Shown here: positions 1 to 8,275 of the stretch, in pieces
How the letters are laid out: each line of letters starts with the position of its first letter
How positions within the stretch are numbered: the first letter of the stretch is position 1
IMG/VR virus record: IMGVR_UViG_3300021127_000004
Location: 1 to 64,000 of that record
Origin: a virus
Direction: 5' to 3' (one strand)
Length of the DNA stretch: 64,000 nucleotides
The notes under the pieces: model-generated
Told to the model about the DNA's origin: nothing
The model's input: the letters and a program-made list of their open reading frames with translations, nothing else
The model's database searches: none
Translations under genes and position numbers: made by a program

Positions 1-240
1 CGATACAGAATGTTTGGGACAATGCTACGATACAGAATGTTTGGGACAATGCTACGATACAGAATGTTTGGGGCAATGCTACGATACAGAATGTTTGGGA
101 CAATGCTACGATACAGAATGTTTGGGACAATGCTACGATACAGAATGTTTGGGACAATGCTACGATACATAATGTTTGGGACAATGCTACGATACAGAAT
201 GTTTGGGGCAATGCTACGATACAGAATGTTTGGGACAATG
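1..240 (+). repeat. 27-bp tandem repeat CGATACAGAATGTTTGGGACAATGCTA, 8 full copies plus 1 partial, truncated by window start
   Basis: Directly visible; variants GGAC>GGGC (copies 3 and 8) and CAG>CAT (copy 7); no spacers. Confidence 0.97.
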
Positions 241-320
241 GATTGTATAAAGATTATAGAGGCATTAAGCCCAAACTATATTTAAAGAAAAATGCTTTCG
301 AAATAGTATTGATTGATTAA
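3..320 (+). CDS. 5'-truncated protein with IQNVWDNAT nonapeptide repeats (probable beta-solenoid), ending GLYKDYRGIKPKLYLKKNAFEIVLID
   Basis: Frame +3 is open to TAA at 318-320; the repeat resembles phage VxGNA-type repeats; stop sits just before the next gene. Confidence 0.75.
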   Translation: MQNVWDNATIQNVWDNATIQNVWGNATIQNVWDNATIQNVWDNATIQNVWDNATIHNVWDNATIQNVWGNATIQNVWDNGLYKDYRGIKPKLYLKKNAFEIVLID

Positions 321-332
321 ACAAACAACTTT

Positions 333-557
333 ATGACACTACAACAAAAAGAAACACGATTGAATCAGGAATTGGCAAATGAACCCGCAGCGATAATAAA
401 CGCCCGTTTCCTCTATCTTACAGACACGAATCGAAGAAACTATTGTTCCCCCACTTTATTATCTAAAAGGGTAAGTAGTGGAAAGGTAGGGAGTTTAATT
501 AAGGTTTTAGATAGGGGGTATTTTAACCAACTTACAGAGGGATATTTTGACAATTAA
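333..557 (+). CDS. hypothetical protein
   Basis: 74 aa ORF with AT-rich leader, co-oriented with neighbours. Confidence 0.65.
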   Translation: MTLQQKETRLNQELANEPAAIINARFLYLTDTNRRNYCSPTLLSKRVSSGKVGSLIKVLDRGYFNQLTEGYFDN

Positions 558-579
558 TCACACTAAAAAATAAATACAA

Positions 580-1680
580 ATGAAAAGTAATGAAATTTTA
601 AAGGCTATCGGATTGCCTAAAAGCAAGTACAATAATGCACATTGCAGTAAGTTAGCAAGTGTTTACTCCCTCTTAAAAGAAGTTAAAGGGGATATTATTA
701 GTGCTGAAATAGTAGGCAGCGAAGAACTATTTTTTGGTAGAGATACTGAAAATAGTTACGATTGGAAACGAGGCAAAGAAATAAAGGTAAATAATGAAGG
801 TCAAAGCATTAAGGCTGAAAAAATAAAAGTAGTTACTTCTTATGGTGGGGTTTATTCGTTTGCTATCCCAATTGAAAATGCTTTTTATTATTCAGTTTTA
901 GACTTGTTGGGGATTTCTTACAAAGATACTAAGGTAGAAATAACAGAATTTAAGATGGGTGTGATTTTAGTTCCCGAAATTTTGGATGACATTAAAAGGG
1001 CAGCAAAGTTCGTAAGCAAGAATGACTTAAAACCACAATTAGGATGTGTTTGTTTGGATTTTAGCGGCGAATGTGTGCAAGTGGTCGCCACCGATGCACA
1101 TAGGCTTTATTTGAGCCGCAAAAGGGGATATGAAAGGAACGATAAAACCCCGTTCAAAATACTAATTAGTGCTGAATCAGTAAAAGAACTATGCAGCGTA
1201 AAGGTTGACTACGAATCCCCTATTACTATCAAAGTAGTGGACAAAGAAACGGCTTATTTCAATGATATTAAAGTAAGCCTTTACGATGGATACCAAAAGT
1301 TCCCAGACTACAAAGCAGTAATCCCCACTTACGATACATCTATGGTATTTGATAGAAAGGCTATGATAAGCAATGTCAAAAAAGTAATGCCTTACTCTAA
1401 TAAGTCCACAATGCAAGTAAACTTTCATTTGAACGGTAAAATAGAAATGATGGCAGAAGATAGGGATTTCGAGTTTGGCACTACTGCATCTTTCCCCTAT
1501 GTATCAAAAGACTTTCAAGATACTGATATAGCCTTTAATGGTAAGTTCTTAGTTGAAACGTTGGGGGTATTCAAAAGCAGCGAAGTATCTATGTTACACA
1601 ATGGTATCCCAACTAAGCCCGCTATTTTTACTGATGGCAGCGAACGAGTGTTAGTTTGCCCCTTAATGATAAAGGACTAA
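580..1680 (+). CDS. dnaN: DNA polymerase III beta sliding-clamp-like protein with atypical N-terminal region
   Basis: Clamp motifs VATDAHRL, FPDYKAVIP, IAFNGKFL, VLVCPL in residues ~135-366. Confidence 0.8.
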   Translation: MKSNEILKAIGLPKSKYNNAHCSKLASVYSLLKEVKGDIISAEIVGSEELFFGRDTENSYDWKRGKEIKVNNEGQSIKAEKIKVVTSYGGVYSFAIPIENAFYYSVLDLLGISYKDTKVEITEFKMGVILVPEILDDIKRAAKFVSKNDLKPQLGCVCLDFSGECVQVVATDAHRLYLSRKRGYERNDKTPFKILISAESVKELCSVKVDYESPITIKVVDKETAYFNDIKVSLYDGYQKFPDYKAVIPTYDTSMVFDRKAMISNVKKVMPYSNKSTMQVNFHLNGKIEMMAEDRDFEFGTTASFPYVSKDFQDTDIAFNGKFLVETLGVFKSSEVSMLHNGIPTKPAIFTDGSERVLVCPLMIKD

Positions 1681-1708
1681 TTTTTTAAACAATTAAAATA
1701 AATAAGTT

Positions 1709-1966
1709 ATGAGTACAGAAAACAAAAGCTGGTACAAGAAAGAAACTAGCGCAGGTCAATTTTTAATCATAAATGAAAGTAACGGGGATAATGTGGCAGT
1801 TGTTTATGATAACAACAACAATTCAGCATCTTTAATAGAATCAGCCCCAAATATGTATAAAGCCCTTAATGAAGTGCTTAAATTTATGACTGTTGACACT
1901 CCCCAATCAGTAGAAGCACAAAAGAAGGTAATAGCCGCTATTCGTAAGGCAGAAGGGCTAGAATAA
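1709..1966 (+). CDS. small phage protein (NAxLIxxAPxxYxAL family)
   Basis: SASLIESAPNMYKAL resembles a common phage motif. Confidence 0.7.
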   Translation: MSTENKSWYKKETSAGQFLIINESNGDNVAVVYDNNNNSASLIESAPNMYKALNEVLKFMTVDTPQSVEAQKKVIAAIRKAEGLE

Positions 1967-2014
1967 GCAGCGAATCAAAAGGCTACAAATGTAGCACACC
2001 AGAGTAAAACGATT

Positions 2015-2185
2015 ATGATAAAAAAGATTTTGTCTATTTTCAAAAAGAAAAATTACAACAAAGAAGGGTATGGTAACTTTTTTATGTTAAGGATAGATTT
2101 AGATAAGGATAAGCGAAAATTTGACGCAGCGAATCCTAAGCCCGTTTACAAAATATCTAAAATTATTGACCCAAACAATCAGTAA
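2015..2185 (+). CDS. small hypothetical protein (56 aa, MIKKILSIFKK...)
   Basis: Hand-translated ATG-TAA ORF below the track cutoff, fills the gap. Confidence 0.55.
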   Translation: MIKKILSIFKKKNYNKEGYGNFFMLRIDLDKDKRKFDAANPKPVYKISKIIDPNNQ

Positions 2186-2218
2186 ACATATTTAATCACT
2201 TTTAAACATTTTTAAGCA

Positions 2219-2374
2219 ATGGGAATAGGATATATTAAAGGGGATATTGTAATCCTTAGAATAGTGGGAAAGATTACAGAAGTAACTTTCTCACATTATA
2301 GCGGGAAGAGAGGCAAAGGGAACTTTTTCTTTGATTTTTTAGGAAACAAATATAATCTCAACCAAATAGCGTAA
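2219..2374 (+). CDS. small hypothetical protein (51 aa, MGIGYIKGDIV...)
   Basis: Hand-translated ORF, 3 nt before next ATG. Confidence 0.55.
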   Translation: MGIGYIKGDIVILRIVGKITEVTFSHYSGKRGKGNFFFDFLGNKYNLNQIA

Positions 2375-2377
2375 CCA

Positions 2378-2608
2378 ATGGCAATATTATCAGTAGCAGA
2401 GTACACAAAGAATAAGAATATACGGTTATCACTTCCCTTTAAAATGGATAAAGAAGGGGGTAAATACTATCACAAGGGGGGATGGATAGACAAGCAGCGT
2501 TTAGACGAAATTTACCCAATAGATTTGCCTTTTGCAGAGAATAGGCGTAAGGGAGAAAACCCCGAAGTAAGCAAACGTTTTATTCATAATCAAAAAAGTT
2601 ATATGTAA
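2378..2608 (+). CDS. hypothetical protein
   Basis: 76 aa ORF, tight packing. Confidence 0.65.
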   Translation: MAILSVAEYTKNKNIRLSLPFKMDKEGGKYYHKGGWIDKQRLDEIYPIDLPFAENRRKGENPEVSKRFIHNQKSYM

Positions 2609-2760
2609 TGGACAAGTATAAGTTGCAATCAGCGATTAATAAAATTAACGATAATCTTCGGTTGGGGAAATGTAAAAACCCCTTTGCAGCAAAGAACAAA
2701 AAGAAGCAATTACAAAGGGAACTAAGGGCAATATTGCAACAAGAATTTGAAGCTAAATAA
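2608..2760 (+). CDS. small basic hypothetical protein (50 aa, MDKYKLQSAI...)
   Basis: TAATG coupling with upstream stop. Confidence 0.6.
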   Translation: MDKYKLQSAINKINDNLRLGKCKNPFAAKNKKKQLQRELRAILQQEFEAK

Positions 2761-2767
2761 ATAAATT

Positions 2768-2971
2768 ATGTACTCAATAGAAGTTCAAGAAGAACAAACA
2801 AGAAAGACTTTAATAACCTATGAAGGAACAATAACCCCACAAATAGGGGATATATACGCAGGGTCTATTTTAGGGAAAGGCTTCTCTCAAATAGTAGTAG
2901 GTAGGTTACTAATCCCCGCTTGCCCAAAAAACATTGTAGTATTTGTTAAAGATGCGTATATAAATGAGTAA
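2768..2971 (+). CDS. hypothetical protein
   Basis: 67 aa ORF, tight packing. Confidence 0.6.
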   Translation: MYSIEVQEEQTRKTLITYEGTITPQIGDIYAGSILGKGFSQIVVGRLLIPACPKNIVVFVKDAYINE

Positions 2972-3152
2972 GCAAGAAAGCCCCTTTATAAGATGTTTTA
3001 GGCTGTATTTCATAGTAGAACGGGAACAAAACAAAGTAAGAAAAGCCCTACTGAAAAGTAAAGACAATAGTGTTGTTATCCCCCTTACTAACCGTTACGA
3101 TATTTTGCAGCGAAGAAAAGATAGACTTAACCGTATTAAACTTAAATTATGA
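2964..3152 (+). CDS. hypothetical basic protein
   Basis: 62 aa ORF overlapping neighbours. Confidence 0.55.
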   Translation: MSKQESPFIRCFRLYFIVEREQNKVRKALLKSKDNSVVIPLTNRYDILQRRKDRLNRIKLKL

Positions 3153-3463
3153 CAATAAGTGACAAGGCATTAGCGTGGTGGGCGGCGTTAAGCCCAGAAG
3201 AAATAGAAGATTTATATACCATCAGTACTATTGGGGAAACTTTGCCAACCATAGACCCAGAAATATTCATTGAAGGTGTCGAAAATGGGATTTTAAAAGG
3301 TTACGATGCCCCCCTTGCAAAAAGAAACTACCAAGTAGCGGAATATCTATGGCAAGAACTATTAGGAGTAGTTATGATTAATGAAAGTGGCAGAACCCTA
3401 AGCAGCGAAGAAATAAAGTCTTGTAGGGATGCACTAGAAAAACAGCGACCCATTAAGCAGTAA
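3149..3463 (+). CDS. hypothetical protein
   Basis: 104 aa ORF, ATGA overlap, ends at terminator. Confidence 0.65.
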   Translation: MTISDKALAWWAALSPEEIEDLYTISTIGETLPTIDPEIFIEGVENGILKGYDAPLAKRNYQVAEYLWQELLGVVMINESGRTLSSEEIKSCRDALEKQRPIKQ

Positions 3464-3466
3464 AAC

Positions 3467-3497
3467 AAAAGCCCTTACGATTTGTAGGGGCTTTTTT
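3467..3497. terminator. bidirectional intrinsic terminator between convergent gene blocks
   Basis: AAAAGCCCTTAC-GATTT-GTAGGGGCTTTTTT hairpin flanked by A and T tracts. Confidence 0.8.
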
Positions 3498-3687
3498 GTT
3501 GGGTTAGAATATCCCTTTGCCATTGGATAGAAACATTATAGTGAATATAACGGGCTTCTAGTTCGTCCTTTGCCTTTTTCACTTCTTCTAGGTTATGTCT
3601 CCCCGTGATAGGTACTAGAAAAACTTGCATTAAATTACCTTTCGTTTCATAGGGGATATTATTGCTTGTGTGCTTAATTACTGCCAT
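3475..3687 (-). CDS. hypothetical protein
   Basis: 70 aa ORF. Confidence 0.55.
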   Translation of the reverse strand: MAVIKHTSNNIPYETKGNLMQVFLVPITGRHNLEEVKKAKDELEARYIHYNVSIQWQRDILTQQKSPYKS

Positions 3688-3723
3688 TAAATTTCGTTTT
3701 CGGTGTGAACATTATCCCAATCA

Positions 3724-4281
3724 TCATCTTGCCAAATTAGAAGGGGAGTAAGTGGTGTTTCTTGCATCTTGATTATTGTTTAGTGGCGTTATTGTAATTG
3801 GTTGTCCGAAAATCCCCGTAGGACGATATTTATTCAGTTCTTGTCTTAGGGTGATGTTCTTGTTTTTTAGTTCGTTGTTATCCCTTTGTAGGCGTTTGTT
3901 TACTCCTTTTAATTGGGCGTAATCCCTTACTAAGTCGTTGTACTCTTGTTCTAGTTGTTCGTATTTTTTTGGGTCTTGAACATTTAGTTCCAAGTGGGCT
4001 TTCAATAGTTCTATATCATTAAAAACAACTGCATCGCTTACCGATAATTGGTCTATTACGGTATCCCTACCGTGAATTATCGTCGTGTGGTCTCGTCCAC
4101 CGATAGCATCGCCCAAACTCATTAAAGAAAACCTATAATAAACCCTTCCAATATAGCAATAATACTGCCTTATCTTTACTAAGTCCCTAAACCTTCTTTT
4201 GCTTTTTATGCTGACATAATTGGCATTAAACAATATACATATTTTCTCTAGTAGTTGTTCAGGGGTTGTAATCAATGTCAT
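3724..4281 (-). CDS. DnaA C-terminal (domain IV)-like HTH protein with coiled coil
   Basis: R..LVKIRQ and IGGRDHTTIIHG signature, followed by heptad-rich segment; no AAA+ domain. Confidence 0.8.
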   Translation of the reverse strand: MTLITTPEQLLEKICILFNANYVSIKSKRRFRDLVKIRQYYCYIGRVYYRFSLMSLGDAIGGRDHTTIIHGRDTVIDQLSVSDAVVFNDIELLKAHLELNVQDPKKYEQLEQEYNDLVRDYAQLKGVNKRLQRDNNELKNKNITLRQELNKYRPTGIFGQPITITPLNNNQDARNTTYSPSNLAR

Positions 4282-4300
4282 AACATTAAAATTTATCTTA

Positions 4301-4651
4301 CTAAAATAACGATTGTTGTTGAAATTCCCCTACCTTATCTAAAACTTCTTTAGTGGGGAGTGATTGCGTTGCATTCTCAAAATTAGTCTGTAATGCACTA
4401 TCCTTTGGAGTAGAAACCAAAAGATATTGTGCGTAGGTACATTCGTTGTTAAACCTATCGTGGGCGGTCTTGGGTACTGTTGAAATATCCCAACCCCCAC
4501 GCCTTAATAACAAGATGCTTTGCCCTATCCTAGTATGCCCGTAAAGTTGTATTGCTTGCCAACTTGTAATTGTTTTGTACTTCATTAAGTGGGCTACTAC
4601 CTTCCCGTGCTTAGTTACCTTAGCCGATTGTGTCGGATTTTTCTTTTCCAT
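4301..4651 (-). CDS. winged helix-turn-helix protein
   Basis: HL....ITSWQAIQLYGHTRIG..I..LRRGGWDI pattern typical of small phage wHTH proteins. Confidence 0.7.
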   Translation of the reverse strand: MEKKNPTQSAKVTKHGKVVAHLMKYKTITSWQAIQLYGHTRIGQSILLLRRGGWDISTVPKTAHDRFNNECTYAQYLLVSTPKDSALQTNFENATQSLPTKEVLDKVGEFQQQSLF

Positions 4652-4814
4652 TTTCTTTTATTTTAGTATCAACAAATAGTTTTACCATATCCCAATGTTC
4701 TAGGTCAATGAAACATTTTTCATCAAAAGGGGAGTTAAAGTCGTTAGTAAATATAATGTTCCCGAACCCCACTTCAACAGAATTATGTTTATCGTATTTA
4801 AAAACTTCACTCAT
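4620..4814 (-). CDS. hypothetical protein
   Basis: 64 aa ORF in minus block. Confidence 0.55.
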   Translation of the reverse strand: MSEVFKYDKHNSVEVGFGNIIFTNDFNSPFDEKCFIDLEHWDMVKLFVDTKIKENGKEKSDTIG

Positions 4815-5023
4815 AAAATTTGTTTTTCTAGTCTCATGTAATAACCAATGTTACCACTACTAAAGTACTCTTTTTGCCCTTTTTTATGCCCCGTTTCATA
4901 TTGATAGACGTGCATTTTCTTATTCATTTTTTTGCCATCGGGGGCTATGTCACTATCCCCCACATATATTATTTTTTGCCTATCAAAAATAAATGAATCA
5001 GGGGGCTTAAATTCTTCTATCAT
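4811..5023 (-). CDS. hypothetical protein
   Basis: 70 aa ORF, ATGA overlap. Confidence 0.6.
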   Translation of the reverse strand: MIEEFKPPDSFIFDRQKIIYVGDSDIAPDGKKMNKKMHVYQYETGHKKGQKEYFSSGNIGYYMRLEKQIL

Positions 5024-5156
5024 AATTCTACTTGTTTAGTCCTATAAGGGTTCTTTTTATTGCCCCCGTATTTGTGACCGATAGGGAAGGTGTGTTTCAT
5101 AATTTCTTATATTTAATGGGTTTATAACTCCATATCATTTGGCATCTGTACCGCCG

Positions 5157-5654
5157 TCACGAATAAAGGACTTCTTCTAAGTAATCCCACATTACTTGAA
5201 GATAACCTTTGGTATAAAGCATTTCTTTAAAGTGAGCGTGTTCCTTTTGATATTTAGTAAACATACTACTACCCGTCATTCTGCTGTATTGACAATTAGC
5301 AATCCTATCGCATAGCTTTACAAATAGTGCATTAGGGGTTTCTTTAATGTCTTTATAAATCCAATCGGGCATTCTTTCAGCCCTATTTCTTCCCCTTGTT
5401 AAATTAGTGCAAACCCTTACTATTTCAGCCGTTTCATAAGATGTATTTTCAAGTACATCGTTATAACTTTGTCTAGTATCTTCAATAAGGTCGTGACACC
5501 AACACCCATTAATAACACTTTCTTGATTATCATTTGAAACTAAATGTATAAATTTTTCCCCATTCCTTACAACCATTCTTAGGTGAAACTCATAAGGTAA
5601 ATACTTGTCGTAAAAGTGATTTGTTTCAGCGTGTGCTTTAATTGCGTAATCCAT
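5157..5654 (-). CDS. HD-domain hydrolase, RelA/SpoT hydrolase (Mesh1/SAH)-like
   Basis: A..AH, PY.FH, CHDLIEDT, VKLCDRIAN motifs. Confidence 0.82.
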   Translation of the reverse strand: MDYAIKAHAETNHFYDKYLPYEFHLRMVVRNGEKFIHLVSNDNQESVINGCWCHDLIEDTRQSYNDVLENTSYETAEIVRVCTNLTRGRNRAERMPDWIYKDIKETPNALFVKLCDRIANCQYSRMTGSSMFTKYQKEHAHFKEMLYTKGYLQVMWDYLEEVLYS

Positions 5655-5769
5655 AATTTTATTTTTTAAAAGTTAATAATATCATCGTCTATGTGTTTAG
5701 CCGTCACATAGCATTTAATTGTATATGCTATCATTGTGGCAATCGTTAGTAGTAGCATGGGTAGGGGGT

Positions 5770-5955
5770 TTAACGGTTAAGTAATAATTTATCTAGTTCA
5801 TCACTTGTTATCTGTCCTGTATGTTCATAGCCTTTTGATAAGCCATATCTAAGAACTTTTAATACTTCCTCTTTAGTCATTCGCTTACCGTTATGCTCAA
5901 ATACTTTATAGCTTTTATTTATATTAGCTAAACAACCTTTTATGTCTTCATTCAT
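5770..5955 (-). CDS. hypothetical protein
   Basis: 61 aa ORF. Confidence 0.6.
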   Translation of the reverse strand: MNEDIKGCLANINKSYKVFEHNGKRMTKEEVLKVLRYGLSKGYEHTGQITSDELDKLLLNR

Positions 5956-5979
5956 TTTTATTTATTGTTTAATTGTGAA

Positions 5980-6279
5980 TTAAAATTTAACACCTCCGCT
6001 TTGTATAAAATTTTCGTAAGATTGACTAGCTGATTTATTTATTTCTTCTTGTGCTTCACTAGCAGAATTATAACTATCATCTAATACTAATCCGCCTATT
6101 AGCCTAATAAAATACTTATCACCTACTTTTAGTATAGTATAAGTTTTAGGGTCACAATAGCTAGGTAAATGCGACAAATCTATTTTTTGCTCAACAATAG
6201 GACTTACTATATTTACTTGCTCTTTTTGTCTACAACCAATTGCAACTGATGCAAAAATTATAAAGTATGCTTTTTTCAT
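5980..6279 (-). CDS. putative lipoprotein
   Basis: MKKAYFIIFASVAIG-C lipobox-like signal. Confidence 0.6.
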   Translation of the reverse strand: MKKAYFIIFASVAIGCRQKEQVNIVSPIVEQKIDLSHLPSYCDPKTYTILKVGDKYFIRLIGGLVLDDSYNSASEAQEEINKSASQSYENFIQSGGVKF

Positions 6280-6959
6280 TATTTCTCATTTAATTGTTTA
6301 TGTAATACCGCCGCCACTTCCCGTAACTTACTCCATTCTTGTTTAACCTGTTCCAATCTTTCGTTTTCATCAACTCCAGAGAACATAGGGCAACCCTTAC
6401 GGATATTTCTTTCGTGGCTGCAAGCATCTTCTAATAGGTCACGAAGGGAGTAAATAGGGTCACATTTGCTAAATATATTTTCAGTCAATTTTTCAGCCAT
6501 TCTAGTACGCTTGTCTATTTCGCTTTCTTCCTTTACTTCTATCCAAGTGCCGTTTGCAAAGTTTGATACTACCCGGTCAACAGGAATTATTGGAGGTAAA
6601 TGAATGCCAGCTATTACATACCCTTCACTTTGTTTTTTTAATTCCCAAACAGAAACACCATTTCTATATACAAACCTAACCCCCGCCCAATTTCTTTCAT
6701 CTTCCTTTTCATACAGCATACCTTGTTCTTCCGCTAGGCGTTCGATGTCCGACAATTTGAAGATGTAAAAAAAAATATTAACATAGTCCTTTGCCTCAGC
6801 TAATATGTACCCTCTTTTGTGTAACCCAAAAGAGACTAATTCATTTTCATCACATCTTAATTTTTTAATAGGGAAGGGAGACGTTGAACTACAACTAAAG
6901 CCTTCGGGTATTTTTGGCAGTTTTGTACCAGCGATTATGAAATCTACTTTCTTTTTCAT
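6279..6959 (-). CDS. hypothetical protein
   Basis: 226 aa ORF, coupled to next gene. Confidence 0.7.
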   Translation of the reverse strand: MKKKVDFIIAGTKLPKIPEGFSCSSTSPFPIKKLRCDENELVSFGLHKRGYILAEAKDYVNIFFYIFKLSDIERLAEEQGMLYEKEDERNWAGVRFVYRNGVSVWELKKQSEGYVIAGIHLPPIIPVDRVVSNFANGTWIEVKEESEIDKRTRMAEKLTENIFSKCDPIYSLRDLLEDACSHERNIRKGCPMFSGVDENERLEQVKQEWSKLREVAAVLHKQLNEK

Positions 6960-6977
6960 TTTTGTGTAGTTTAATTG

Positions 6978-7169
6978 TTAAAAAGTTATTATGATGTGGT
7001 TTAAATAAATATTGTAAGCCAAATATGATACTGCCCAAAATAGCCATAATGCACACATTACAATAAGTAAGTCATCTAATCCATTATCGTCAACTATATA
7101 TACTATCCTTATAAATAGTATTATTATTAATATTAGGGCTACCACCCACAAAGCGTTAATCGTTATCAT
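6978..7169 (-). CDS. small two-TM membrane protein
   Basis: Two hydrophobic stretches separated by DDNGLDD. Confidence 0.6.
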   Translation of the reverse strand: MITINALWVVALILIIILFIRIVYIVDDNGLDDLLIVMCALWLFWAVSYLAYNIYLNHIIITF

Positions 7170-7180
7170 TGTTAAGGGGT

Positions 7181-7435
7181 TTAATTGTTAAGTAATGAAT
7201 CTACATCAACGCCACGAGCCTTCATAACTTTTGAAAGTTCACGGTAAATAACTTGCGCCAAGTTTTCGTTTGTGCCGTTCCCGTTAATATACTTATAGTA
7301 AGTAGGGTTGCTGCACACTTTCGGCTTACCTAATTCGCCACGCTTTGTAAGATATTCAATATCACAAAGTTTTACTTTAGGCTTTAATGCTACCAATTTT
7401 CTATTGGCTAAATCTAGTTGTTCTCCTGCTATCAT
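7181..7435 (-). CDS. putative HTH-like DNA-binding protein
   Basis: S.PTYYKYING segment resembles an Xre recognition helix. Confidence 0.45.
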   Translation of the reverse strand: MIAGEQLDLANRKLVALKPKVKLCDIEYLTKRGELGKPKVCSNPTYYKYINGNGTNENLAQVIYRELSKVMKARGVDVDSLLNN

Positions 7436-7453
7436 ATTTATTTGTTTAAATTG

Positions 7454-7645
7454 TTATGCCACTACGTTTAATGATTGACTTTCTTTTATTTCAGCATTTG
7501 ACATCATACCTACAAACCTGTAATCTTTAATATTATTTTCACGCATCCAAACAAGCAAATTTGCAAAATTAGTTGCCCTTACTTTTTTCCAAGTGTTATT
7601 TACTTTAATTTCGTAAACAATTGTAGTAATTTTTTGCATATCCAT
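7454..7645 (-). CDS. hypothetical protein (start revised to ATG 7645)
   Basis: Track start lies upstream of the promoter; ATG at 7645 has an A-rich leader. Confidence 0.6.
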   Translation of the reverse strand: MDMQKITTIVYEIKVNNTWKKVRATNFANLLVWMRENNIKDYRFVGMMSNAEIKESQSLNVVA

Positions 7646-7669
7646 TTTTCTTTCATTTTTAATCTGATG

Positions 7670-7777
7670 CAAATATATAGGAATAATTTGGAATAACAAT
7701 CATTTACGTTTGTTAAATTTTATTTTAAAACTTTAACAATATTTATTTAATAGTTTCAATAAATACCCTTACTTTTG
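7670..7777. promoter_or_regulatory. divergent Bacteroidota sigma-A promoters with central palindrome
   Basis: TATATTTG on minus (7670-7677), TACTTTTG on plus (7770-7777), inverted repeat TTGTTAAA...TTTAACAA at 7710-7739. Confidence 0.75.
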
Positions 7778-7803
7778 CTGTATCAAATTAAAAAATAGAA
7801 AAA

Positions 7804-8028
7804 ATGAAAAGTACAGTAACAAGAAAAACACCGTTAGCATTTACTACTACATTAGTAGAACGTATGAAAGGTAATTGGGATGTGCAATTAAGAAAAGCAG
7901 ATGATAATAGTGGCTATTATATGTATAGCACTAAAACAGGTACTCACTTTTTACCTAGTGAAAACGGTATCTATACTGATAGAGTAGATGCACATTGGAA
8001 AGGCTTTCAACTTAATCAATCTAATTAA
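7804..8028 (+). CDS. hypothetical early protein
   Basis: 74 aa ORF directly after promoter. Confidence 0.7.
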   Translation: MKSTVTRKTPLAFTTTLVERMKGNWDVQLRKADDNSGYYMYSTKTGTHFLPSENGIYTDRVDAHWKGFQLNQSN

Positions 8029-8068
8029 TCACAACAGGGGGCTAATAACTCCCTTAAAACTTATTACA

Positions 8069-8275
8069 ATGAGACACGAGAAAGTAATTAAAAAAGAAAA
8101 TACTACTGTTATAATACAAATATATATAGATGTAAGTTGTGAAGATATTTGGGATTATCAGGTTTTTCAAAAAAGCGAAAAAAATATTTATTATTACAAT
8201 AACCCAAGTGCTGCCACCCCTGCCGAAATACTAGAGGCTAAACTAGAATTGTGGAACTTAATTAAACCTTGTTAA
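8069..8275 (+). CDS. hypothetical protein (start revised to MRHEK)
   Basis: Internal ATG with AT-rich leader avoids overlap. Confidence 0.6.
   Translation: MRHEKVIKKENTTVIIQIYIDVSCEDIWDYQVFQKSEKNIYYYNNPSAATPAEILEAKLELWNLIKPC

Follow-up and report, generated by a model that had tools for sequence, protein, structure and literature searches.

A one-strand octamer repeated along a sliding-clamp operon in a group of uncultured freshwater phages

The window analysed here is a stretch of 64,000 nucleotides, bases 1-64000 of the 78,699-bp IMG/VR phage contig IMGVR_UViG_3300021127_000004 (G000), and it contains near its left end a block of plus-strand genes in which a single octamer, GCAGCGAA, is densely repeated. 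Between 333 and 3463, the block encodes a phage sliding clamp and nine open reading frames (ORFs) of 50-104 aa, eight of which have no family while one matches only phrog_1273 (unknown function, E 1.5e-7); portal, large terminase, and GroEL genes are found elsewhere on the contig. From the evidence set out below, GCAGCGAA is a real and polar signal, selected at the nucleic-acid level. An exact-match scan of the window locates seven copies, all on the plus strand, and these are precisely the seven that a preliminary description of the window had listed. The three additional hexamer cores (GCAGCG) reported in that description are likewise present. The clamp gene, the octamer copies, and the cores are as follows:

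580-1680, + strand: sliding clamp of the beta-clamp type, the anchor gene of the operon (phrog_947, E 8e-25; Pfam DNA_pol3_beta domains)
716-723, + strand: GCAGCGAA copy 1, clamp gene, phase 1 (GGC AGC GAA)
1577-1584, + strand: copy 2, 3' part of the clamp gene, phase 1; common to relatives L090 and L091 only
1637-1644, + strand: copy 3, 3' end of the clamp gene, phase 1; found in this phage only
1967-1974, + strand: copy 4, non-coding, 1 nt past the stop of ORF 1709-1966
2126-2133, + strand: copy 5, 56-aa ORF 2015-2185, phase 0
3107-3114, + strand: copy 6, 62-aa ORF 2964-3152, phase 2; the position also carries the word in L094 and L097
3402-3409, + strand: copy 7, last ORF 3149-3463, phase 1, ~60 nt 5' of the terminator hairpin
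387-392, + strand: core GCAGCG (GCAGCGAT), 74-aa ORF; the same position holds a full GCAGCGAA in L090 and L091
1193-1198, + strand: core GCAGCG (GCAGCGTA), clamp gene
2494-2499, + strand: core GCAGCG (GCAGCGTT), 76-aa ORF

The same seven copies are the only ones in the whole 78,699-bp contig when both strands are considered. All of them lie within 716-3409 of a block of ~3.3 kb, the minus strand has zero, and the other 75 kb carry no copy. Chance would be expected to yield far fewer: an order-3 Markov model of the contig predicts 0.34 copies per strand, and dinucleotide-shuffled versions of the window contained a mean of 0.68 +/- 0.82 copies with a maximum of 4, compared to the seven observed. 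When 8-mers are ranked with the order-3 Markov model, GCAGCGAA is the top over-represented 8-mer of the genome, and it is by far the most block-specific word among 6-, 7-, and 8-mers, whereas no other word of similar composition was found to be enriched in the block. The core GCAGCG occurs 10 times on the plus strand and never on the minus strand of the block (241-3497), while the remaining 75 kb have 0 on the plus strand and 5 on the minus strand. In position order, the copies fall in codon phases 1, 1, 1, spacer, 0, 2, and 1, which bears out the earlier statement that all three phases and one intergenic site are used, and four of the seven share the frame xGC-AGC-GAA. Synonymous-codon shuffles that keep the proteins and the codon usage of the block yield 0.49 genic copies compared to the 6 observed, and none of 5000 shuffles reached 6. 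Neither an even spread over both strands nor a Markov or codon background can account for the cluster. The copies are dispersed and irregularly spaced (55-2100 bp), with the octamer found once per 0.45-1.0 kb and the hexamer core once per ~0.35-0.4 kb. Our literature search identified no reported use of this octamer.

There is no nucleotide match to the window among 50,697 deposited phages and no close relative of the clamp in IMG/VR. The relatives referred to here are freshwater JGI/ENA metagenome contigs retrieved by a profile of clamp homologues, and the word counts in them cover the retrieved locus stretches rather than whole contigs. One of these, L089, is 99.5% identical to the window, reaches ~1 kb further left, and has an extra GCAGCGAA at L089:831, ~158 bp left of window base 1. 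Five more distant relatives carry 5-10 copies, in each case on one strand:

L090, clamp identity 75%: 9 copies on the + strand, 0 on the - strand
L091, clamp identity 75%: 10 on the + strand, 0 on the - strand
L094, clamp identity 49%: 6 on the + strand, 0 on the - strand
L096, clamp identity 48%: 5 on the + strand, 0 on the - strand
L097, clamp identity 47%: 6 on the + strand, 0 on the - strand

The preliminary description had called for a search for such clusters in related phages, and its proposal of a polar nucleic-acid signal marking one region is supported both by the codon-preserving shuffles and by the presence of the word in relatives whose clamps are only 47-49% identical. In the relatives, these shuffles again fall well short of the genic copies observed (9 observed vs 0.69, 6 vs 0.42, and 4 vs 0.24), such that 0.24-0.69 copies are expected and 4-9 are observed over four genomes, including the window. 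The hexamer core outnumbers the octamer roughly two to one, with sense:antisense ratios of 19:2, 16:0, 10:0, and 9:0. Considering the window and its relatives together, the word is used in all three codon phases, and outside coding sequence it is found in a spacer between genes (window 1967) and in a 3' untranslated region (3' UTR; L097 4113). Conversely, a near-identical phage fragment of 62.7 kb (G001) that lacks this region has zero copies, and no enriched polar word of this kind was found in the sister lineages L098-L107, which encode a homologous clamp but lack four of the operon's ORFans as well as the word.

The occupied positions turn over between lineages. Within the clamp gene, the word is found at about six alignment positions, with different ones occupied by different lineages, and its losses there are synonymous (GGC>GGA, GCG>GCA), while sister phages without the word encode the identical residues KKAAKF through GCT GCA AAA codons. 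The position homologous to 716, for example, has the word in L093, L096, and L097 and lost it in L091 through a synonymous GGC>GGA change, and the position homologous to 1637 reads GGC AGC GAT in L091 and L093. Only two of the seven window sites are at positions that carry the word in the L094/L096/L097 lineage (3107 in L094 and L097, 716 in L096 and L097), from which it follows that most copies arose independently. This independent origin is the most compelling evidence that selection continues to act on the word itself. Among the differences listed for a diverged variant in Logan contigs, none falls inside a word copy.

Given this pattern, it is scarcely credible that the word has no function and is simply a by-product of local composition, mutation bias, or reused peptide motifs. 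Such an origin would agree with the frame shared by four window copies and with the observation that, between the closest relatives, single sites are conserved no better than their surroundings. However, codon-preserving shuffles fall short in all four genomes, every phase as well as non-coding sites are used while the antisense strand lacks the octamer, the word was gained independently in lineages with 47% clamp identity, and no word of similar composition is enriched in the block. Other phages carrying the same octamer provide a useful control. A scan of IMG/VR for octamer pairs returned at least 119 stretches, and most of the matches listed are tandem repeats or pairs that arose by chance; several others are one-strand clusters of dispersed copies in phages of ~50% GC. 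Unrelated phages of this composition with 5-11 copies on one strand include L254 (IMG/VR record G002, 31 kb, with direct terminal repeats), L353, and L324. In three one-strand clusters examined among the matches listed, 13 of the 14 copies in sense-strand ORFs are in phase 0 (Ala-Ala-Lys/Asn), which indicates that the control clusters are largely codon-driven, unlike the phase-independent cluster described here.

Little beyond the word itself is conserved. In 25 independent sequence contexts, the eight bases of the word are constant and position -2 is A/T in 25 of 25, whereas no second conserved element was found within +/-70 nt. The lack of conservation in these flanks implies that the word is not part of a composite promoter or operator, and a promoter-type second element beside it was rejected for this reason. 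An antisense or small RNA partner was rejected as well: the complement TTCGCTGC is missing from the plus strand of the contig, so no transcript of that strand can carry it, and one-mismatch variants within the block do not follow G:U tolerance. At copy 4, a hairpin, GCTACAAATGTAGC (1982-1995), starts 7 nt 3' of the word. This hairpin is perfect, and its counterpart in L094 and L097 is GCTACATTTGTAGC, which thereby includes a TAnnTTTG box.

The limits of the cluster coincide with those of a predicted transcription unit. At its 3' end, the preliminary description had the cluster stop at a terminator at 3467, and this terminator is real:

3464-3497, + strand: intrinsic terminator between convergent operons, the 3' limit of the cluster (hairpin plus U run)

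Its hairpin (3470-3492) is followed by a U run and has a predicted stability of -17.9 kcal/mol (z = -3.7). In L091, a TAnnTTTG promoter box is located at ~792, before the first ATG, and the terminator at ~8320, with word copies at 1745-8249; in L094, a matching promoter box is found at 984 and word copies at 2158-6846. Promoter and terminator bound the cluster in L091, L094, and L097. The word is missing from the ~0.8 kb of GT-rich non-coding sequence that precedes the L091 operon, as well as from the convergent minus-strand genes and the next plus-strand operons. In L097, the copy at 4113 is between the last stop codon and the terminator hairpin, 3 nt before the latter, and L094 has a 7-of-8 match at the same 3' UTR position. 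Although the last gene of the operon differs between the two lineages, both place a copy ~10-90 nt before the terminator hairpin. As far as promoters and terminators can be predicted, the distribution of the word coincides exactly with a single transcription unit and is restricted to the sense strand of that unit. The first copy is found 0.95-1.2 kb past the promoter and is one of 6-10 that become denser toward the 3' end, an arrangement unlike that of ops and nut-boxA antitermination elements, which are present as one or two copies in a 5' leader.

Two further points of the preliminary description find no support here, namely that this is the first gene block, at the scale of the genome, and that its words might mark first-injected DNA. 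Window base 1 is an assembly break within a repeat and neither a genome end nor a mapped terminus. Since the contig ends there inside a tandem repeat, the word cluster is truncated at this point. Both ends of the contig are products of assembly, broken within repeats or an inverted region, and Logan contigs from four freshwater runs revealed neither termini nor useful joints. The sequence at the contig's right end (78601-78699) is an inverted homologue of the GT-rich non-coding stretch at L091 1-800, upstream of the clamp operon. The two ends probably face each other across a ~1.5-kb divergent control region, whose CA-rich and GT-rich arms are mirror images, together with the first ~4 kb of the operon, in which case the genome may be ~85 kb and nearly complete, compared to a CheckV estimate of 57% completeness.

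Polar dispersed words are a known kind of signal, and the best published precedent for the current cluster is found in the co-oriented Chi octamers clustered in phages LLS of E. coli, MD8 of P. aeruginosa, and P1 (PMC12315714). Like those, GCAGCGAA is a lone asymmetric 8-mer, the top over-represented octamer, confined to one orientation (7:0 here and 10:0, 6:0, 6:0, and 5:0 in relatives), and locally clustered, with sites that are gained and lost. According to a Chi-like explanation, the word or its complement would be a hotspot for a host AddAB/RecBCD-type enzyme and its one-orientation cluster would stop degradation of a linear end or rolling-circle tail and load RecA. The promoter motifs described below suggest a Bacteroidota host, Bacteroides uses AddAB and its Chi sequence was unknown as of 2010 (PMC2887965), and two contigs (L091 and the right end of G000) break in the non-coding region upstream of the operon. 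Nevertheless, we consider this explanation unlikely. The copies are not placed by DNA ends with free use of non-coding DNA: the ~0.8 kb of non-coding DNA beside the operon, where copies would cost nothing, is empty, as are the other 75 kb, and there is no mirrored cluster across the divergent region. The limits of the cluster are the promoter and terminator even though the operons differ in length and end gene among lineages, and the confinement to one unit without copies in the adjacent non-coding DNA is a better fit to a transcription-linked signal than to end protection. The word is also restricted to one phage group and tracks phage ORFans, and it is more dense than the Chi sites of LLS (one per 1.9 kb; PMC12315714). 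Lastly, an exonuclease-family protein (phrog_284 and phrog_22398) is encoded by the phage itself, and in lambdoid phages a recombination module of the phage's own accompanies few Chi sites (PMC12315714).

The host assignment itself is suggested by promoter-like sites of a Bacteroidota type (TTG-N17-21-TAnnTTTG) that are found upstream of other operons. A near-identical pair, TTG-N19/21-CTATATATTTGCATC, is located at window 7670-7699 on the minus strand and at contig 70548-70579 on the plus strand, where the sites head a minus-strand operon and a distant plus-strand replication module, respectively, and fit the Bacteroidota -33/-7 type. A GroEL scan of genome contigs returned solely non-Bacteroidota matches, at no more than 39% identity. 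A different kind of gene-start sequence is found in L117 and L118, whose clamps are 34% identical. In L117 1919-6280 and L118 1459-5309, TTTAACCACTT(A/T)AAAAA is located 10-25 nt before many starts of the homologous operon and is a lineage-specific gene-start motif (a promoter or translation initiation signal) distinct from the octamer. The L117/L118 word TAACCACTT was considered as an analogue of the octamer and rejected, as it is intergenic and precedes start codons by 10-25 nt, in the manner of a promoter or initiation signal.

Upstream of the clamp gene, the operon also contains tandem repeats:

1-240, no strand assigned: tandem repeat, 27 bp x 8.9, cut by the contig start and located inside an ORF of the same operon; without the octamer

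In L089, this 27-bp array sits within a 191-aa ORF (734-1309). Arrays are found at the same place in every relative, with a repeat unit that varies by lineage (27 bp x 8.9 here, 60 bp x 5 in L090, L091, and L096, and 24 bp x 7 in L102); their coordinates include window 1-240, L089 990-1229, L090 1983-2282, L096 673-860, and L102 2766-2965. Those of L089, L090/L091, and L096 are within an ORF of the clamp operon, and by analogy to lambda O the arrays look like an iteron-type origin embedded in an initiator gene. Two other short words occur in the block as well. TTACGAT is found six times on its plus strand (756, 1281, 1329, 3095, 3301, and 3475) compared to 0.21 expected from the rest of the genome; TACGAT is included in the 27-bp repeat unit, and the excess of TTACGAT is less pronounced in L091 and is not seen in L096. 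TAAGCCC, with four copies, shows a similar pattern, and both may be secondary words or chance.

The vicinity of a putative origin raises the possibility of a replication, packaging, or DNA-entry signal, in which polar sites would guide or arrest a DNA motor, primase, or fork near the iterons. The cluster does surround origin-iteron-like arrays in every relative, the operon encodes a clamp, and an 8-base polar word is the usual format for guiding a motor, as exemplified by KOPS and SRS, which are read directionally by the DNA-moving proteins FtsK and SpoIIIE. However, KOPS and SRS are chromosome-wide and switch orientation at the replication terminus, whereas GCAGCGAA forms a single local cluster of 3-7.5 kb. 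Its copies flank the iterons in one orientation (L091 1745 and 2695 vs 4808-8249; L096 344 and 519 vs 1181), and copies of the same orientation on both sides are ill-suited to a bidirectional origin. Neither the 27-bp array nor the 60-bp arrays of the relatives contain the octamer, and it is these arrays, rather than the dispersed octamer copies, that provide the tandem or close repeats typical of origin iterons and DnaA boxes. Furthermore, a separate plus-strand replication-type module at 70.8-76.8 kb, with primase-helicase-like and SSB-like (single-stranded DNA-binding) ORFs named from sequence alone, is without the word, and the terminase is 38 kb from the cluster. A role of this type is therefore highly unlikely.

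If the word is read by a protein of the phage, the most suitable candidates are encoded within the operon itself, since four of its ORFans have the same range as the word:

333-557, + strand: 74-aa ORFan, candidate reader; in every word-bearing relative (53-85% identity), absent from the sister lineages
2378-2608, + strand: 76-aa ORFan, candidate reader or binder of host machinery; 87% identical in L094 and L097, where the clamp is 47-49% identical
2608-2760, + strand: 50-aa ORFan, co-occurring with the word; 64% identity in L094 and L097
2964-3152, + strand: 62-aa basic protein, co-occurring with the word; 55-56% identity in L094 and L097; a helical hairpin is predicted with a confident model

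The AlphaFold model of the 74-aa protein is a six-helix bundle (pLDDT 89), and its family comprises 9 representative clusters (E<=0.001) in 1.84 billion proteins, 8 of which are small (72-80 aa). The 76-aa family has four representative clusters; the protein received no family or fold assignment, and a protein atlas search for it was empty. Its gene shares only ~77% nucleotide identity despite 87% protein identity, an unusually strong constraint. Fold searches with the 74-aa and 62-aa models returned only generic helical matches below a meaningful level (Z 5.5, death-fold-like, and Z <10, helical hairpins, respectively).

The preliminary description had instead pointed to neighboring helix-turn-helix (HTH) and DnaA-IV proteins as readers. 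Convergent with the clamp operon, a 185-aa protein (3724-4281, - strand) combines the helix-turn-helix of DnaA domain IV (Bac_DnaA_C, E 5e-14) with a coiled coil resembling ZapB/YabA, and an adjoining gene (4301-4651, - strand) encodes a winged-helix (HTH_39) protein. Both are found only in the closest relatives L090 and L091, whereas neither was found in the sequence retrieved for the word-bearing L094 (reaching ~9 kb downstream of the operon) or L097 (reaching ~1 kb downstream). This mismatch of range makes them poor candidates, and they were rejected as readers of the word; they might bind the iterons.

The same distribution bears upon the possibility of a roadblock, in which a phage protein bound to the double-stranded word at numerous sites of the operon, in the blocking orientation, would halt elongating RNA polymerase and shut the operon off. 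Stoperators of Cluster A mycobacteriophages, bound by the L5 gp71 repressor, act in this manner on elongation rather than initiation; they are 13-14 bp, are dispersed genome-wide, and include an operator at the early promoter. As in that system, the sites described here are asymmetric, co-oriented with transcription, and numerous within one operon. A near-copy, AGCAGCGTT, abuts the -7 promoter box in L094, small uncharacterised proteins co-occur with the word, and the closest relatives encode HTH proteins in the adjoining region. Even so, a stoperator-like function is rather unlikely. Only 6-8 bp are specified and there is no flanking consensus, a single operon is marked and most copies are inside ORFs, the L091 promoter has no copy, the DnaA-IV and winged-helix proteins were not found in the L094 and L097 sequence that carries the word, and among the candidate readers none has an HTH or ribbon-helix-helix fold in predicted structures.

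Three features, namely the confinement to one unit including its 3' UTR, the strict use of the sense strand, and a range tied to the ORFans, point to a signal that is linked to the transcript or to transcription and read by a factor of the phage group. We estimate a probability of roughly 0.4 that the word is such an operon-specific cis signal, read on the transcript or during transcription by a phage-group-specific factor. Presumably, GCAGCG(AA) would be a cis-acting word held by selection on the sense strand of one transcription unit, and that unit would be an operon of small early-type genes, including the sliding clamp, transcribed by host RNA polymerase; its early status is suggested by the host-type promoter and the content of small ORFan genes. 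The factor would read the word in the transcript or, as transcription proceeds, in the non-template strand, and would set the fate of the operon mRNA, by timed cleavage and decay or by protection. The best candidate readers would be the ORFan proteins of the same operon (74, 76, 50, and 62 aa). Timed cleavage or protection of the early operon mRNA would be the most concrete version of this proposal: the copy near the terminator could be an entry site for removing the protective 3' hairpin, as an endonucleolytic cut just before the terminator hairpin would open the whole mRNA to 3' exonucleases, or it could be a protection site beside the hairpin. A parallel can be drawn to the T4 endoribonuclease RegB, which targets GGAG in early mRNAs at 4-nt sites that are mostly in translation initiation regions. 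In both cases, a short sense-strand word in (putative) early transcripts would allow a phage factor to pick out one temporal class of mRNA, whereas the word described here is 6-8 nt in length and found mostly inside ORFs and before the terminator. Family searches identified no RegB homologue in the operon.

Several observations weigh against a transcript-linked signal and its proposed readers. Firstly, the window and L091 share 92-94% nucleotide identity and have retained the word at 5 of 9 site positions, which approximates the neutral expectation of 0.93^8. Single sites are no more constrained than the surrounding coding DNA, and the case rests on the maintained number of copies; given this near-neutral retention, selection appears to act on the number or density of words rather than on single sites. 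Secondly, all relatives have one syntenic operon, and so inversions cannot separate use of the sense strand from a fixed orientation in the DNA. Thirdly, the word is predicted to be unpaired in folded transcripts more often than GC-matched 8-mers of the same transcripts (median 0.085 vs 0.017; Mann-Whitney p = 1e-5), which favors the proposal, but this result may only reflect its A/T-rich flanks and counts related sites as independent. Fourthly, neither family nor fold searches assigned the candidate readers a recognisable RNA- or DNA-binding fold or family. The sequences themselves show that the word is enriched, strand-specific, independent of codon phase, conserved with turnover of its sites, confined to the operon, and accompanied by the ORFans, whereas its reading as RNA rather than DNA, the identity of its reader, and an effect on the mRNA are inferred.

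We know of no published system in which a sense-strand word matches one operon exactly and has a clade-specific range. Few DNA signals work via many dispersed copies; Chi, KOPS, and stoperators belong to them, and the decoding of each revealed a new machine. In these uncultured freshwater phages, a word is maintained at a density of one copy per 0.35-1 kb of a single operon through repeated independent gain. Should a phage protein be its reader, this would constitute a compact new means of recognizing RNA or DNA by sequence. Should it be read by host AddAB, it would be, as far as we are aware, the first Chi sequence to be put forward for a Bacteroidota lineage, a group for which we know of neither a Chi sequence nor a description of phage early-gene regulation. 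In a more speculative and less probable scenario, the octamer would represent a phage cis-signal of a kind not yet described, serving as an address word of the operon that is written through the sense strand of its coding sequence and read by a small, lineage-specific ORFan protein of the same operon, giving one early transcript a separate fate such as timed decay or protection. In that case, it could point to a widespread level of temporal control in phages that has so far escaped notice.

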